From Alphaproteobacteria bacterium (lineage in GTDB: Bacteria > Pseudomonadota > Alphaproteobacteria > Bin95), in NCBI GenBank assembly GCA_964291285.2, contig OZ219785.1, forward strand, positions 544,001-608,000: a stretch of 64,000 nt of DNA, written 5' to 3'. Position numbers and translations under genes: made by a program. The notes beneath the pieces were generated by a model, which saw only the letters and a list, made by a program, of their open reading frames with translations, did no database searches and was not told the origin of the DNA. Shown in pieces: positions 3,497 to 31,500 of this stretch; position 1 is the first letter of the stretch, and each line of letters begins with the position of its first letter.

Positions 3497-3595
3497 ACTG
3501 GCGGGCGCGGAGGCAGCCAGGGCGAATTAATTGTCTGCCTTTGGGCCATGTTGAGGTGGGGTCCGGGGTGGCTATTTTTTTCTTGATATGGCAGT

Positions 3596-5392
3596 GTGCC
3601 GGTCATGGCGAGGTTTCTGTTTGCGGGTGTTTGGGTTGATCTTCGCGCGGTCACGGTGCGCCCGACCTGGGGGGCACGGGAGCACCGGCGCTGGGACGAT
3701 TTGGTAGCGGCGCACCACTATCTGCGGTTCCACGGCATCATCGGCAAGGGTCTGCGCCATGTCGCGGTTCATGGCGAGGCCTGGCTTGCCCTGGTTGGCT
3801 GGCAGCCTGGAGCGTTCAAGGTGGGAGCGCGGGACCGCTGGATCGGGTGGTCGGCGGAGCAGCAGTTCCGTCGCCTGCATCTGGTTGCCAACAACTCGCG
3901 CTTTGTCATCCTGACGCCTGAGCGGGTTCCCAACCTTGCCTCGCGGGTGCTGGGGCTGAGCGTGCGGCGGCTGTCGCAGGACCTGCGGGCGGCGCATGGC
4001 TATCCGGCTGTTGTGGCGGAGACGTTTGTGGACGTCTCGCGCTTCGCCGGCACCTGCTACCGCGCGGCCAACTGGCGCTCTTTGGGTCTGACGCGCGGCT
4101 TTGCCCGCGAGCCCGGAGGGGTGGCGCGCTGGCGTCACCACGGCCAGCCCAAGGAGGTCTTCGTGTTCGAACTGACACACGGCGCCCCCGAGGCGCTGAG
4201 CCATCCCGAGATACCGGCAGACTGGAACGCTGAGCAGCACACCGAGCCGATGGCGGCGCCCCGGCTGCGCAGCCTGTTCGAGTGTTTGGGCGAGGTGCCC
4301 GAATACCGCCATGCCCGGGGCAAGCGCTATGCGCTCACCACCATTCTGACGCTGGCCGTTGCCGCCCGGCTTGCCGGATACCGGGGTGTGAACGCCTTCG
4401 CCCAGTTCGCCGCCCTGCTCTCCCAGAAGCAACTCAAGGCGGTGGGCGCCTTCTGGAGCCCATCCAGGCAGTGCTACACGCCGCCGGCGGTCACCACCTT
4501 CCACAACATCCTCGCCGCCCTGCCGCCACAGACCCTGGACAATGCCATCGGCCAGTGGGCCGGACAGCACAGCAGTGCGCACGCGCCTGTGGCCATGGAC
4601 GGAAAGGATTTGCGCGGTGCCTCGAAGCAGAGCGAAGACCGGCGCAGGAGGATGGTCGCTGCGGTGGCGCATGACACCGGCGTGGTCCTCGGGCAGGTCG
4701 AAGTCAGCTCCAAAAGCAACGAAATCCCGGCCGTGCGCGAACTCTCCAGCGGTCTCGACCTCACAGGCCGGATCGTCACCATCGATGCGATGCACGCCCA
4801 GCACGAGACCGCGCGTTGCCTGCTCGAACGCCGTGCCGACTACGTGGTCAGCGCGGTGAAGGGCAACCAGCAGACCATCCTCGAAGACCTCAAGGCGATC
4901 GACTTCAGCGATGCGCCCTGGCACGAAACCGTCGACAAGGGCCATGGTCGCATTGAGCGCCGACGCTGCGCCGTCGTCGACCTCTGCGCTGCCGAGTGGG
5001 ACGGCTACGCCCACCTTCACGGGCGCCGCCAGGCAATGCGCATGGAACGCGAGCGCAAGATGCTCAAAACCGGCAAGCGCAGCATCGAGGTCACCTGGAG
5101 CCTGACGTCGCTTGGCGCAGAGCGAGCCGGCCCCAAGGAGCTTCTCGATCTGGTGCGCAACCACTGGCACATTGAGAACCGTGTGCACTATGTGCGTGAC
5201 TTCACCTATGACGAAGACCGTTGCCGGGCATATGTGCGCCACCTGCCCGGAAATCTGGCCTGCTTGAGCAACGCGGCCATCGCTATCGTGCGCTGCGACG
5301 GACGCTTCCGATATGTACCCGAGGCCAACCGGCACTACGCCGCCCGCGCCCAAGAGGCCCTCGACGCGATTATGATCGCGCCCAGAGGCTGA
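3596..5392 (+). CDS. ISAs1 DDE transposase with N-terminal DUF4338 (DruA-like) domain
   Basis: C-terminal part: DGKDLRG, SKSNEIPAVRELL-like, TIDAMHAQ, VKGNQ, DKGHGRIERR, RNHWHIENRVHYVRD..EDRCR. N-terminal part: HHYL, RDRWIGW, VANNSRFVIL, NLASRVL, ETFVD..RFAGTCYRAANW. Confidence 0.88.
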   Translation: MPVMARFLFAGVWVDLRAVTVRPTWGAREHRRWDDLVAAHHYLRFHGIIGKGLRHVAVHGEAWLALVGWQPGAFKVGARDRWIGWSAEQQFRRLHLVANNSRFVILTPERVPNLASRVLGLSVRRLSQDLRAAHGYPAVVAETFVDVSRFAGTCYRAANWRSLGLTRGFAREPGGVARWRHHGQPKEVFVFELTHGAPEALSHPEIPADWNAEQHTEPMAAPRLRSLFECLGEVPEYRHARGKRYALTTILTLAVAARLAGYRGVNAFAQFAALLSQKQLKAVGAFWSPSRQCYTPPAVTTFHNILAALPPQTLDNAIGQWAGQHSSAHAPVAMDGKDLRGASKQSEDRRRRMVAAVAHDTGVVLGQVEVSSKSNEIPAVRELSSGLDLTGRIVTIDAMHAQHETARCLLERRADYVVSAVKGNQQTILEDLKAIDFSDAPWHETVDKGHGRIERRRCAVVDLCAAEWDGYAHLHGRRQAMRMERERKMLKTGKRSIEVTWSLTSLGAERAGPKELLDLVRNHWHIENRVHYVRDFTYDEDRCRAYVRHLPGNLACLSNAAIAIVRCDGRFRYVPEANRHYAARAQEALDAIMIAPRG

Positions 5393-5529
5393 TACCCCAC
5401 CCCCCACCGCAATACAGGCTCGGGCCGAAGAACGGCGCAGCAAAACAACTGCGCCCGTCGAGGACGAAAACACTGGACCGCGGCATCAAGAAACCACCAT
5501 GACGGCGGCCAGAAACGTCTGGGGTTCCC

Positions 5530-5944
5530 CAAAACCTTCATTGTCGGGCGGGTCGGCCACCCCGTATCATGAAAACAGGTGCCGGCCGCGCGGGCGGGAC
5601 TTCGGGCTTTTACGGGGTTGCCTACCGGTCAGGGTCCGCAAGACGGGCGCCGCAGATGGCGAGTATCGGACGCCTCGGGAGCAGTGCTTTGGCGGGGAGG
5701 TTTTTTTTGCGCCCGATCCCCAACAATTTTCACGGCAAAACCTTCATTGTCGGGCGGGTCGGCCACCCCGTATCATGAAAACAGGTGCCGGCCGCGCGGG
5801 CGGGACTTCGGGCTTTTACGGGGTTGCCTACCGGTCAGGGTCCGCAAGACGGGCGCCGCAGATGGCGAGTATCGGACGCCTCGGGAGCAGTGCTTTGGCG
5901 GGGAGGTTTTTTTTGCGCCCGATCCCCAACAATTTTCACGGCAA
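5530..5944. repeat. Two tandem copies of a 206-bp non-coding element inside the ISAs1 3' region
   Basis: Unit caaaaccttcattgtcgggcggg...ccccaacaattttcacgg starts at 5530 and 5736 and is followed by CAA at 5942; a third copy is at 25245. Confidence 0.95.
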
Positions 5945-6055
5945 ACACCGGCAGCCAGACCGACATCACTCAGACAAAGCCCGCGGTTCGACTAAAAATT
6001 TTCCCTGCGGAGGCAGCCCATGTCCTCCAATACCACTGCCATATGCTGTATCTTG

Positions 6056-7507
6056 GATCGTGCCCCCGCGGGTGGTGTAAGAGCCTGGCGTCCGTAGCGG
6101 TGTCCGGCGGGTAGGGCCGGAACGCTCAGGCTGCCACGGCGGGCAACTTGACGGTTGTATTGTCGCTCACGGGAGCGATGGATTCCAGCGTCATGTATCT
6201 GGCTCTCTGGACTGCCCATTCATCGTTCTGCTCGAGCAGGATTGCGCCGATCAGCCGGGTGATGGCGTCCTCGTTGGGGAAGATGCCGACGGTGTTTGTG
6301 CGCCGCTTGATCTCGCCGTGGAGGCGTTCGAGCGGGTTTGTCGAGTGCAGCTTGGCGCGGTGCGCGGCCGGGAAGGTCATGTAGGCGAGAACATCGTGCT
6401 CGGCCTCGTCCATGATGGCGGCGAGCTTTGGCGCCTTGGGCCTGAGCTGGTCGGCGACCTGGCGCCACTGGGCGGAGGCGCTGTCTGCATCCTCCTGGGC
6501 GAAGGCGGTAGTGACGAAGGCGGAGACGACGCGCCGGCCCTGCTTGCCGGCATGGGCGAGCAGGTTGCGCATGAAGTGGACGCGGCATCTCTGCCAGGTG
6601 GCGCCGAAGATGCGGGTGGCGGCGGCCTTCAGGCCCTTGTGGTCGTCGGAGATCACCAGCTTGACGCCGCGCAGGCCGCGGCGGGCGAGCGAGCGCAGGA
6701 AGTCGGTCCAGAAGGTCTCGGCCTCGGACGCGCCGATCGCCATGCCGAGCACCTCGCGCCGGCCCTGATCGTTGACCGCCACCGCGATGGTGACCGCGAC
6801 CGAGACGACGCGCCCGGCCTCGCGCATCTTCACATAGGTCGCGTCAAGCCAGAGATACGGCCAGTCGCCCTCCAGCGGCCGGTCGAGGAAGTCGCGGATC
6901 TTGTCGTCGATCTCGCCGCACAGCCGCGACACCTGGCTCTTGGAGATGCCCGACATGCCCATCGCCTGCACCAGGTCGTCCACCGAGCGGGTCGATACGC
7001 CCTTGATGTAGGCCTCCTGGATCACCGCCGTCAGCGCCTTCTCCGCCATCCGCCGCGGTTCAAGGAAGCCCGGGAAGTAGCTCCCCTTGCGCAGCTTCGG
7101 GATCTTCAGTTCGACCGTGCCGGCCCGCGTCTCCCAGACCCGGTCCCGGTAGCCGTTGCGCTGCGTGATCCGGTCCGGCGAGCGCTCGCCGTGCGCGGCG
7201 CCCGCAAGGCCCTCAACCTCAAGCGCCATCAGACGCGCGGCCGTGAACCCGATCATCTCGCGAAGCAGGTCGGCGTCGGAACTCTTCTCCAACAGCGCCC
7301 GCAGGGTCATCATGTCGGTGGTGGTCATCGTGGTACTCCTCCGGTCAGGTGGACTGTGACAGCCCAACCCTAACCGGCACCGCGATGGCCTCCGCTGTGG
7401 GTAAGTGGCCCGCCGCCGCCTGACTCCAGACGGTCGCGGCGGCGGGCCACTTACCCACAGCTACCACCGGAAGCTTCAGCTCCTACACCACCCCTGGGGA
7501 CACGACC
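6056..7507 (-). mobile_element. IS256-family insertion sequence with 8-bp TSD
   Basis: IRs gatcgtgcccccgcgggtggtgtaagagc / gctcctacaccacccctggggacacgacc; GTATCTTG at 6048-6055 and 7508-7515. Confidence 0.92.
6126..7328 (-). CDS. IS256 family transposase
   Basis: [69 protein letters not shown]. Confidence 0.95.
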
Positions 7508-24416: not shown

Positions 24417-24834
24417 CTGGAAACGGGCGAAAGATGTCGCGCCGACATGCGGAACCGCGAGCAAGGAATGGCGCATCCGGCGGCAAGATCGTAGAACCTC
24501 CGGCAATCATGAACGATATGCGGCGCGGGCGACTCCTCCGATGAGGACGCTCGCAAGGAGCGCCTATGCAGGCAAGGGTTCGACGGCGTGACCTCGGCAC
24601 AGTTTGACGGAGGGGCGTGGATCGAGCGCGTTGTGGAGCTGCTTCCGCCGCTGGCGCAGGCGCAGGAACCCTATCTGCGCGAATTTCAGAAACGGTATGC
24701 GCGCGTGATTGACCTGCGGGACGGCAAACCGCCGCCTTTCCCGCTGGACGATTTGCGCCTGCTCTACGACGAGGTTCGCGACAGCAGGCCCTGGGGTCTG
24801 GAAGCGCACTATGCGCCCTTGCGCGCGGTGCTGG

Positions 24835-24928
24835 ACCCGGTGCACCCGGTGCGTACCCGGTGCGTACCCGGTGCGTACCCGGTGCGTACCCGATGCGTCA
24901 CGCACTGCTGGGTCACGCACTGCTGGGC
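24835..24928 (+). repeat. Short tandem repeats: 4 x ACCCGGTGCGT plus partial/variant units, then 2 x CACGCACTGCTGGG(T/C)
   Basis: Read directly: perfect units 24844-24887; 15-mers at 24899-24913 and 24914-24928. Confidence 0.92.
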
Positions 24929-25244: not shown

Positions 25245-25453
25245 CAAAACCTTCATTGCCGGGCGGGTCGGCCACCCCGTATCATGAAAACAGGTGCCGG
25301 CCGCGCGGGCGGGACTTCGGGCTTTTACGGGGTTGCCTACCGGTCACGGTCCGCAAGACGGGCGCCGCAGATGGCGAATATCGGACGCCTCGGGAGCAGT
25401 GCTTTGGCGGGGAGGGGTTTTGTGCGCCCGATCCCCAACAATTTTCACGGCAA
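25245..25453. mobile_element. Third copy of the 206-bp element, inserted in the HEPN-like gene
   Basis: Same 206-bp length with about 6 substitutions versus 5530-5735; CAA on both sides. Confidence 0.9.
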
Positions 25454-28516: not shown

Positions 28517-31500
28517 GTGGGCGCCCCCGGGAGAACCGCCCGCCGCCTGAGCGCGGGACTCGCTGCCCTCTTCCTCATCACACTGACCACCGTCTTTGCG
28601 CCGCAGGCTGCGCAGGCGCAGACCCCCGTTCTTACCGCAACAGCGGGGGACGGGCAGGTGACGCTGAACTGGACGTATACCGGCAGCGGGCTAACCGGTT
28701 GGGGGTACAAGATCAATGGCGGTACATATACTTGGGCTGGGACACCCATCGTTATTCCAGCTTCCAACTCCGGCACCAGAAGCCACACGGTAACGGGCCT
28801 GACGAACGGAACCGCTTATCAGTTCATTGTCTACGCGCAGACTGATGCCAATACAGCTTTCCGTCAAAGCAACCAGGTGAGCGCCACACCGCAGGTGCCG
28901 GCCCCGACGCTGGTCTCCGGACCGGACAGCACCATCAGGACCGCCGAGACGACGACGCAGGTGTGCTACAACCTGCTTTCGGTCTCGCAGGGTGCGACCA
29001 CGTACCTGGAGGCGCGTCAGGGCAAGACGGCCGTGACCGCGCATTCGGTGCTCTCCGACGCGAGCCTCGGCGTCGAGATCACGCAGGCTCCCGCCGGCAT
29101 CACGAAGGGGCGCGGCGTCAACCTCAGTCCCTGCGTCAATCTGGGCAAGGGCACACATACCGTCACCTGGAGCTGGAGGGGCCAGGACGGCACCGCCACG
29201 GCGGGCACGACCTCCACCACCGTCACCATCACCGACCCCGCGCCCGCACAGGCGAAGCCGGCGCTTACGGCAACCGCGGGTGTCGGCAGTGTCACACTCA
29301 CCTGGACTCGTACCGGCAACACTGGATTTGGATATTGGGTTTACCGACAGGGGGTCACCGGAGGAGGTTACGGCGACTGGATCGATATACCGGGCGGCGC
29401 CACCATCAGAGCCCACACGGTCACAGGGTTGAACGCCGGCACCTCCTATACCTTCCAGGTGGCAAGGGCGGAAGGTGCCGGTCTTAACTTTTCCGTCTTC
29501 GCTAGTGGGGGAGGGTACTCGAACGCGGCCACGGCGACGCCAACGGCGGCCACGACCACGACGCCCGCCGCGCCGACGGGTCTGACGGCGACGCCCGGCG
29601 GCCCCGCGCAGGTGTTGCTGACGTGGACCAAGCCGGCCGGCACGATCACCGGCTACAAGCTGCGCTACGCCAAGACGCCGTCAAAGGCCAGCGCCACGTG
29701 GGGTACCATGACGGGTTCGGGCGCGAACACCGTGAGGCACATGGTGACGGGTCTGGACAACGCCGCCGAATACAGTTTCATGATCCGTGCGGTGAACGCC
29801 TCCGGCGACGGCGCCGCCACGGGCTGGGTGACGGCGACGCCTGCGGACAGCTGCCCTGGCGTGGGAGCACCGACGAACCTGAGCCTTGCGCCGCGTTCGG
29901 ACGGGTTTGCCGTCACCTGGAATGCACCGACCGATATCTTACGCAACGGCTGGGAATTGTCTTACAAGAAGACCGGGGGAAGTTCGAGCTCTGTCACCAT
30001 CTCGGATGCCGCCGCGACCAGCCACACGCTGACCGGCCTGGACGCCGGCACCGAATACGAGATCGCTCTTCAAGCGACGCATCCTGTCAATCCCGATCCT
30101 ACTGCGTCATGCCCTCCAGGCTCCCGCGCAAAAGCCACCGGCACGACCCTCGCGGCCGCGATGCCGACCATCACCCTCACCGCCGCGACGGGGGACGGGC
30201 AGGTGACGTTGTCCTGGACCTATACCAACGACGATGGGGAGGCGTTTGATCACTGGCGGTACGCGCAGAAGAAAGGCAGCGGAAGCTACAGCTTTGGCGT
30301 GGAGATTCCCGGCGGCAAGACCGTCCGAACGCACACCGTGACAGGTCTGGAAAACGGCGCCGCATACACTTTCAAGGTCTCACGCGGAGTTACGAGTCCT
30401 CCACCTGCGATGATCCAGTCAACAGCAGATCCTGACTCCAACGAAGTCACCGCCACACCCACGGCGGCCCCCACCGTCGCCGTCCCCGCGGCGCCGACGG
30501 GGTTGTCGGCGGAGGCGGGCAACCGTCAGGTGAAGCTGACGTGGACCGATCCGGACGACGATTCGATCACGAGGTATCGGGTGCAGCAGAGGAAGGGCAG
30601 CGCCGCCTGGGGCAGCTGGACCGCGATTTCCGGTTCGGACGCGGACACCACGACCCACACGGTGACGGGTCTGGACAACGACAGCGAGTACCGCTTCCGC
30701 ATCCGGGCGCGGAACAGCGGCGGCAACGGCGCCGCGTCGGCGGTGGTGGAGGCGACGCCGTCGGCGTCGGCGGCGGTTCCCAAGCCGGTGCTGAGCGCCG
30801 AACCGGGTTACGCCAGGGTCACCCTGAGCTGGAGCGCCTTGTCGGGTGTGACGGTTGCGAGCTGGGGTTATCAGTACAAGCCCGCGGGCGGCAGCTGGAT
30901 CAGGACCCGGACGGTCACCGGCGGCAGCACGACGAGCGCCACGGTGACGGGTCTGACGATCGGGACGGAATACACGTTCCGGCTGTTCGCCGCGGTCGGT
31001 CCCGGTGTGCAGTCGGTGTGGTCGGACCAGGTGAAGGCGACGCCGACGAACAAGGTTCCCAAGCCGGTCCTGACGGCGGCAGGAGGCGATGCCTCGGTCA
31101 CCCTGAGCTGGAGCGGCCTGTCGGGCATTCCGATAACGAGCTGGGGCTACCAGTACAAGAGCACGGGGGGCTGGAACACGACCACGACGGTCACGGGCAG
31201 AAGCAGGACGAGCGTCCGGGTGACGGGGCTGACGAAGGGGACGGACTACACGTTCCGCCTGTTTGCCGCGGTCAGTCCCGGGGTGCAGTCGGTGTGGTCG
31301 GACGAGGTGACGGCGAAGACCGATCCGGCGGCCCCGGTGCTGACGGCGGCGACCTCGACGACGAACGGGCAGATCGACCTGACCTGGACCCATGCCGGCG
31401 GCTCGAACGAGTTGTCGGATGCGGACGACTATGTGAAAGACGCGGCCAAGTTCCATTGGTGGAGAGCGCAGACCCGGCTGAAGGGCGAAACCGCCTGGAC

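Follow-up and report, generated by a model that had tools for sequence, protein, structure and literature searches.

MITEPpu9, the ssr9 module of ISPpu9 in Pseudomonas putida KT2440, is a gene-less, MITE-like element associated with the IS110 family, and in the accessible part of its description minicircles were detected by PCR and copies in tandem were present (PMC12288879). For IS110-group elements, including IS621, the bridge RNA or seekRNA model has been put forward in several reports, of which portions were available (PMC11208160, PMC11187229, PMC11208158, and PMC13626964). For the IS1111 group, of which IS4321 and IS5075 are examples, subterminal inverted repeats are given as a trait in the section accessible of one of them (PMC11187229). 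Two preprints, also available in part, describe IS110 modules, and non-coding units with left-donor half-matches, that are duplicated in tandem in the absence of target immunity (10.64898/2026.08.14.744561), and half-match recombination in vitro (10.64898/2026.08.31.748434).

The stretch of DNA analysed in this work (the window) comprises 64,000 nt of the Alphaproteobacteria bacterium assembly GCA_964291285.2 (OZ219785.1, positions 544,001-608,000, forward strand). The source genome (6.1 Mb, contigs C1-C5) is designated G000, other genomes G0xx, and loci elsewhere L0xx. A short unit was found in the window as a head-to-tail pair at 5530-5945 (Tandem Repeats Finder: period 206, 2.0 copies, 100% matches) and as a third copy at 25245-25450, with 97.1% identity over 206 bp and six differences with respect to the query unit. 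An earlier reading of this DNA, made from the letters only and referred to here as the sequence-only reading, had reported three copies with a 206-bp period, CAA on both sides and unrelated flanks, all of which can be read directly in the sequence. The features considered are listed below.

about 3517..6007, + strand: host ISAs1-type insertion sequence (IS), 2.5 kb, with transposase ORF 3596-5392 and the unit pair in its non-coding 3' part
5531..5533, + strand: AAA to the left of copy 1, formed by a target A plus the duplicated AA; target CCCC before it
5534..5736, + strand: unit copy 1, body of 203 bp (AC to GGC), from sequence and period, with limits from the empty-site comparison
5541..5570, and again 5747-5776, + strand: promoter-like TTGTCG-18-TATCAT in the part derived from the left end, of putative function
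5737..5739, + strand: AAA spacer at the head-to-tail junction GGC-AAA-AC, from the sequence
5740..5942, + strand: unit copy 2, body of 203 bp with the same sequence as copy 1
5943..5944, + strand: AA to the right of copy 2, second copy of the duplicated dinucleotide, followed by target ACACC
6055..7507, - strand: neighbouring IS256-family IS with about 25 genome copies, outside the unit and given for context only
25249..25451, + strand: third unit copy, body of 203 bp, with AA flanks at 25247-25248 and 25452-25453

A BLAST search with the unit against the whole 6.1-Mb genome, one of the checks that the sequence-only reading had proposed, yielded 39 hits at E ≤ 1e-3, a repetition far beyond what chance would give. 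These hits corresponded to 30 places: the unit is paired head to tail in 9 of them, stands singly at full length in 15, and is partial in 6. Except for one, the pairs were identical, flanks included, and these eight were located inside copies of the same host IS. The ORF of this host (598 aa) matched DDE_Tnp_1_assoc, DDE_Tnp_1, and a DruA-like region, and on the basis of these Pfam matches it was assigned to the ISAs1 type, in agreement with the site assignment made previously. Its 12 genome copies were distributed as 8 with the pair, on four contigs, 1 with a single unit, and 3 empty. Since the eight pairs are identical and have identical flanks in the host IS, the pair formed once and was carried afterwards to eight places of G000 by transposition of its host. 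The ninth pair (C3:1834781-1835193) presented different flanks, and its two copies were 95-96% identical to the query unit. Two observations concern the neighbouring elements. The N-terminal region of the ISAs1-type transposase matched the Druantia protein DruA family (PF14236, E = 2e-19), and the IS256-family (Mutator-type) IS at window 6055-7507 lies 48 bp from the host; elsewhere (region C3:1837727-1843393) a copy of this IS256-family element splits a unit whose positions 140-148 are repeated on both sides.

The third copy was found inside a coding frame, as had been claimed for it: in silico removal of 205 bp restored a frame of 470 codons that otherwise meets a stop after 192 codons, and no Pfam family was matched by this ORF. 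The same insertion recurs in a duplicated region (C4:24068). The interrupted ORF also contains an 11-bp repeat of 6.7 copies at 24826-24898, and another tandem repeat, of 276 bp (1.8 copies, 83% matches), is present at window 30817-31316.

Comparison with empty sites defined what is inserted. The three empty host IS copies read CCCC-AAAA-CACC, and the single-unit host copy reads CCCC-AAA-(AC...GGC)-AAA-CACC. Three empty copies were available for the insertion at C4:501353, and 25 empty matches, six of them read, for that at C4:507047. At the three paralogous sites (host IS, C4:501353, and C4:507047) the net gain was in all cases 205 bp, that is, the 203-bp body plus two A, and for the copy at 25249 the G010 ortholog contained no interruption and matched in length at this point. 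AA on both sides and a gain of body plus AA thus fitted the four empty sites. The CAA core, or alternatively a 3-bp CAA duplication, and the inserted length of 206 bp that figured in the sequence-only reading were replaced by a 2-bp AA duplication and 205 bp: a CAA duplication predicts one extra A on the right, and this failed at the three paralogous sites. In the flanking CAA, the C on the left comes from the target, and that on the right is the last base of the element. The period of the local repeat is 206 instead of 205 owing to the AAA spacer at 5737-5739. Two simple 205-bp insertions into the empty site as sequenced would leave one A fewer than this pair contains, a difference that may reflect either the register of the core or variation in the length of the A run.

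A search for the right terminus of the unit located TGTTTCACGGCAA exactly at the end of a fragment repeated in G000. This fragment, found at C4:270938-271712 and again, unchanged, on C5, codes for the 203 C-terminal residues of an IS110-family transposase, and shorter fragments of the same element occur on C1 and C3. A 5' fragment on C2 (C2:1199943) retains the left end and the DEDD domain, with an open frame of 308 aa. Other genomes contained relatives of this transposase at 69 loci, where complete elements are present. We refer to this full-length 1.77-kb IS110-family IS, which shares the ends of the unit, as the parent; a longer element with the same ends and a recombinase was precisely what had been recommended to look for. 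The complete parent measures 1771 bp and codes for a protein of 416 aa with domains PF01548 and PF02371, scoring 270 bits (cut-off 140) with NCBIfam NF033542 ('IS110 family RNA-guided transposase'). Its non-coding ends extend over about 355 nt on the left and about 155-165 nt on the right, and Rfam gave only two sub-threshold chance matches on the full parent. In G000, 14 matches to PF01548 were obtained, 13 of them in an unrelated IS110-family IS of 1133 bp and 1 in a broken parent, and PF02371 had the same distribution. Only broken parents, and no intact one, were found in this genome; for this reason, the unit copies of G000 are probably stranded.

Other candidate partners were discarded. 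Apart from the first five bases, which are common to both, the ends of the 1133-bp IS are unrelated to those of the unit, and this IS lacks AA flanks. This compact IS is present in 13 copies that are 99.7-100% identical (e.g., G000:C1:260073-261205), with left boundaries varying as if it landed in a repeated target. For the units of G010, neither the 1792-bp IS110-family IS of that genome nor a second one in L144 displayed similarity. The 1792-bp element occurs three times within 5.5 kb at L142 (G010:C2:1363000-1371000), with distances of 68 and 46 bp between copies. L034 and L040 were inspected for an extended form of the unit running into a gene; the neighbours there were an amidase and a TauD-type gene, and no mobile genes.

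The relationship between unit and parent was analysed by means of profiles of their ends. The left-end profile of the parent (first 62 nt of nine full-length parents) gave 37 hits at E ≤ 1 in the 6.1-Mb genome, corresponding to the parent fragment at C2:1199943 (E = 5e-14) and to 36 left ends of units (E from 3e-4 to 0.6). In the reverse search, in which the unit profile was run on 14 parent-bearing loci, the exact left end was matched in 11 of the 11 full-length parents that retain it (E from 6e-9 to 2e-3). In 10 of the 14 loci, unit positions about 51-102 aligned at one constant position, to a stretch that begins around 20 nt beyond the stop codon of the transposase (E from 0.002 to 0.33). 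The right terminus TTTCACGGCAA is common to unit and parent, and sits exactly where parent copies diverge. With the right-end profile of the parent, only four parent fragments and no units were retrieved from the whole genome at E ≤ 1; since this test found no units, homology at the right end is taken as weaker than at the left, and depends on weaker, position-consistent matches together with the identical terminus. The unit thus consists of about 52 nt of the left end of the parent followed by about 155 nt of its non-coding right end, and would have arisen by internal deletion of the parent. Homology with the left end stops at about nt 52, leaving out the part that bears the guide.

No gene with DEDD (PF01548) plus Transposase_20 (PF02371) domains was present in the 203 bp, and the termini lacked terminal inverted repeats, with only an imperfect subterminal inverted match. 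The previous description of a non-coding, non-autonomous mobile unit without true terminal inverted repeats was thus supported, and so was the first-named of the enzyme families suggested for it (IS110/IS1111-like), given that both ends are homologous to those of an IS110-family IS. Because the unit has no recombinase gene, and the full-length relative sharing its ends has one, we considered it a derivative rather than an autonomous member; having neither gene nor guide region, it would have to be moved in trans. The unit is therefore very probably a miniature derivative of an IS110-family IS, recombinase-less and guide-less, that is mobilised in trans by its parent. In the mechanism that we propose, a full-length parent would supply recombinase and bridge RNA in trans, and the donor-binding part of this RNA would recognise the ends of the unit, in which both halves of the donor site around the 2-nt AA core would have been retained. 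The unit would then leave as a circle with the junction right end-AA-left end, and this circle would recombine into an AA target whose left flank matches the target guide of the parent, resulting in a 203-bp body with AA on each side.

Insertion sites of the parent were compared with its left end, which contains a hypervariable patch of 4-5 nt between strongly conserved stretches, followed by AAAC. This patch equals the bases immediately to the left of the parent insertion. For the guide test, 67 left-end matches were read, corresponding to 52 unique sites, from which three tandem junctions were dropped, leaving 49 sites and 8 guide strings. Own guide and flank (-1 to -5) coincided at 174 of 245 positions, a value that none of 5000 guide-class permutations reached. 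Agreement was almost total at -1 to -3 and fell to around half at -4, and the effective natural target match was short (about 3-4 nt plus AA). The parental patch behaves as a bridge-RNA-like guide, and its match with the flank agrees with the bridge RNA/seekRNA model as presented in the available parts of the reports. A second motif of the parents, GCGGCAAA, is similar to the right end (CACGGCAA) taken together with the core; this putative donor guide is invariant in all parents.

Landing sites of the units were then considered in the light of these guides. The 5' parent fragment of G000 on C2 carries a guide ending in CGCCA followed by AAAC, and is itself located after TCGCCA. Twelve distinct full left unit junctions were available in G000; seven of them have four A before the body, that is, CA before AA, and five of these seven read CCA before AA (CCA-AA). 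The other five junctions present C directly before AA, in disagreement with the G000 guide at -1, and may have been placed by a different parent, as suggested by the fact that they mostly belong to the other left-end subtype. In the sister genome G010 all five unit copies lie in one 17-mer, CATGAC-AA-AACATGACA, ten bases of which coincide with the guide patch of L075-type parents from other genomes. The landing sites of the units thus appear to fit parental guides both in G000 (7 of 12 left junctions) and in G010. The 17-mer CATGACAAAACATGACA occurs 128 times in G000 and 112 times in G010 (≤ 2 mismatches; reversed control, 0), and none of the 12 G000 junctions lies within it. It is a genus-wide short repeat, often paired 31 bp apart (e.g., G000:C1:10805-10821).

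As far as the accessible text on MITEPpu9 goes (PMC12288879), its likeness to the unit is considerable. Both are small gene-less elements whose borders resemble the two ends of an IS110-family IS. Both lie directly downstream of a transposase module or alone, sometimes in tandem, the unit adjoining its module at L073 and standing alone in G000 (15 solo copies and 9 pairs). MITEPpu9 is thought to use the IS transposase in trans, as we infer for the unit, and a fixed dinucleotide is found on both sides (AG at ISPpu9, AA here). On the other hand, the two have no sequence relation, and MITEPpu9 has an abundant small RNA gene and circles detected by PCR (PMC12288879, same part), features that are at most putative for the unit. 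Unlike MITEPpu9 as described there, the unit is a plain fusion of its parent's own ends, and occupies around 30 places in a genome without an intact parent. In the literature to which access was at least partial, nothing was found on this unit family, nor any IS110-family MITE-like element other than MITEPpu9. The qualification of the element as undescribed therefore holds for this family and not for its kind, already published for MITEPpu9 (PMC12288879, accessible part), and the unit is a further member of the recently recognised IS110-associated MITE-like kind.

With respect to IS621 and the IS110 group, in the terms of the available texts, the parent has the same DEDD plus Transposase_20 protein, long non-coding left end, short programmable left-end patch equal to the target flank, 2-nt core repeated at either side, and short repeated sequences of the genome as targets; the unit, in contrast, lacks the protein and, from the left end, the part with the guide. 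The core of IS621 is a dinucleotide other than AA. The IS1111 group, in the portion of the literature consulted, shares with the unit imperfect subterminal inverted repeats a few bases inside the ends and site-specific insertion, but its guide-bearing non-coding region is downstream of the transposase, and in the parent this region is upstream, which is the IS110-type layout.

The unit was present in 5 of 37 genomes of the same taxonomic family, G000 included. All five belong to one genus (G000 and 4 of its 16 other members), and none of the 20 genomes of two other genera of the family contained it. A pattern scan with one genome per species gave 11 unit stretches in six assemblies, two of which contain head-to-tail pairs (L058 and L060), and more diverged unit copies adjoin parents in two further assemblies. 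In G010, G013, and G014 units were present and a parent of matching type was not detected.

Head-to-tail arrangements were not restricted to the local pair. In addition to the 8 of 12 host IS copies on four contigs, pairs were found at C3:1834781-1835193, L058, and L060, so that unit pairs occur in four independent contexts from three assemblies. The pair at L058 joins two subtypes (left ends ACCTTC and ACGTCC). Parents also occur in arrays of two to three, with three head to tail at L076 and several other loci flanked by the end of another copy. A natural composite of IS and unit is found at L073:3275-3718 (OZ219790.1), where a unit immediately adjoins a full parent and a second unit follows after 30 bp. 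The junction spacer was AA in L058, L060, and L076, and AAA at the local pair, C3:1834781, and L077. A right-end fragment of the parent, 243 bp long, is found 17 bp away from the dimer at C3:1834781; the other flank of the dimer is non-parental, and no further empty site was obtained for it.

Given that the resident right junction retains the left-donor half-site of the published preprints, the tandem was taken as a product of the family's own recombination. Two routes may have led to a pair: a second copy would recombine at the resident right junction, which still matches the left-donor half-site (half-match recombination), or two sister copies would recombine, one by its left end and the other by its right. 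Where several A follow one another, the 2-nt core could sit in either register, giving a spacer of AA or AAA. The expanded IS110 loci, in the available part of their description, comprise tandems of whole modules and of non-coding units with left-donor half-match boundaries, as here; those loci retain the transposase, whereas the tandem units studied here stand alone, ride in an unrelated IS, and are dispersed (10.64898/2026.08.14.744561).

The chromosomal tandem junction has the sequence predicted for the junction of a circle, so that reads of the two would look alike. In the short-read contigs of four runs, the best one over the junction had 26 and 30 nt on its two sides, below the 31-nt rule. 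In one contig of run X3 the 411 bp between 5531 and 5943 are missing, and this contig represents the empty form of the host IS.

The junction of a chromosomal pair, right end-AA(A)-left end, could itself be a permanent donor site, and the pair a reactive form rather than a by-product. In IS30 the (IS30)2 junction is the reactive form. For the unit we regard this as unlikely. Were it true, donor sites pre-formed at eight places on four contigs would let any incoming parent act at once, and pairs might launch units with no prior excision, or drive bridge-RNA-guided inversions, deletions, and replicon fusions with guide-matching targets.

A weaker addition to the donor-junction proposal is that the conserved core derived from the right end would constitute a functional RNA or protein-binding module. 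As a small RNA with its own promoter, or a cis element acting on parent or host, this core would be compatible with an origin of the unit as a derivative mobilised in trans. A promoter-like site is present in every copy of the pair (2 found vs. 0.2 expected), the local variant has a T-run after a hairpin-like stretch, and near-invariant blocks occur among copies that are 70-87% alike overall; MITEPpu9 carries the Ssr9 RNA, according to the accessible part of the publication (PMC12288879). The fold of the unit, however, was no more stable than shuffles (z = +0.84), and the consensus fold of 17 copies had a covariation term of 0.01 kcal/mol with compensatory change in 3 of 26 pairs, that of 18 copies being also almost without covariation. 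Rfam at E ≤ 1 on window 5000-6500 gave nothing on the unit, with only a sub-threshold COG2908 match outside it. Moreover, the -35-like hexamer and the T-run are not kept in relatives, and the hairpin is not called by a terminator scan, which together make an RNA gene improbable.

That the tandem is a matter of slippage, unequal crossing-over, or faulty assembly, apart from the mobility of the unit, is agreeable with the identity of the two local copies and with the host IS copy that has a single unit, because homologous recombination could interconvert pair and single; no public short-read contig bridges the junction under the 31-nt rule. Nevertheless, duplication can give neither a pair that mixes subtypes nor one whose copies are about 4-5% apart, and pairs recur in four unrelated contexts from three assemblies. 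Besides, full-length parents build the same arrays with the same junction. Slippage or artefact is on these grounds very improbable, and the tandem, about which the sequence-only reading had admitted the possibility of an assembly error, is real, being present in 8 of 12 host IS copies on four contigs and in independent pairs elsewhere.

Regarding the mover, the same DNA admits another division, with a 205-bp element (AC to GGCAA) placed right after CAAA or NCAA with no duplication, that is, as a non-autonomous element of IS200/IS605 type (PATE) moved as single-stranded DNA by a Y1 HUH enzyme. Its own right end, GCAA, would then resemble the target and favour tandems, and terminal inverted repeats would not be expected; they are not present. 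This proposal has practically no likelihood left, since both ends are homologous to those of an IS110-family IS and Y1_Tnp (PF01797) gave no matches in G000 with control genomes positive. Furthermore, each subterminal stretch is an inverted copy of the other, where a PATE would have independent hairpins on a single strand, and the location of all five G010 copies in one 17-mer is far more specific than a 4-nt word. The IS91/HUH alternative of the sequence-only reading was not supported either, as the parent encodes a DEDD IS110 transposase and Y1 HUH had 0 matches, in a search that covered Y1 and not the Y2 of IS91 type. A classical DDE MITE with a duplication of 2-3 bp and reactive head-to-tail dimers, as in IS30- or IS3-type elements, would share the 2-bp duplication and the pairs with spacers of 2-3 bp, but is barely credible for an element with only an imperfect subterminal match instead of terminal inverted repeats, whose relative with both ends in common encodes a DEDD IS110 transposase, and in which only AA is ever duplicated and the bases to the left agree with an internal guide, unexpected for a DDE staggered cut.

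Bridge recombinases are under intense study as programmable tools for genome writing, and a natural gene-less unit mobilised by a parent in trans would indicate what is needed in cis: no more than some 52 nt from the left end, some 155 nt from the right end, and the AA core, while guide and protein would both be dispensable in cis. The family constitutes, in addition, a natural record of guide-target matching, with 8 guide strings against 49 parent insertion sites. Units of this kind are able to outlive their parents, ride in other IS, interrupt genes, and pile up head to tail. About 30 repeat places of G000 that lacked annotation are explained in this way, and similar places exist in at least nine other assemblies. 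At one further place in the source genome (G000:C3:1520005-1520051) a reversed unit-like left end abuts a unit-like right end, an arrangement that looks rearranged or heavily deleted.
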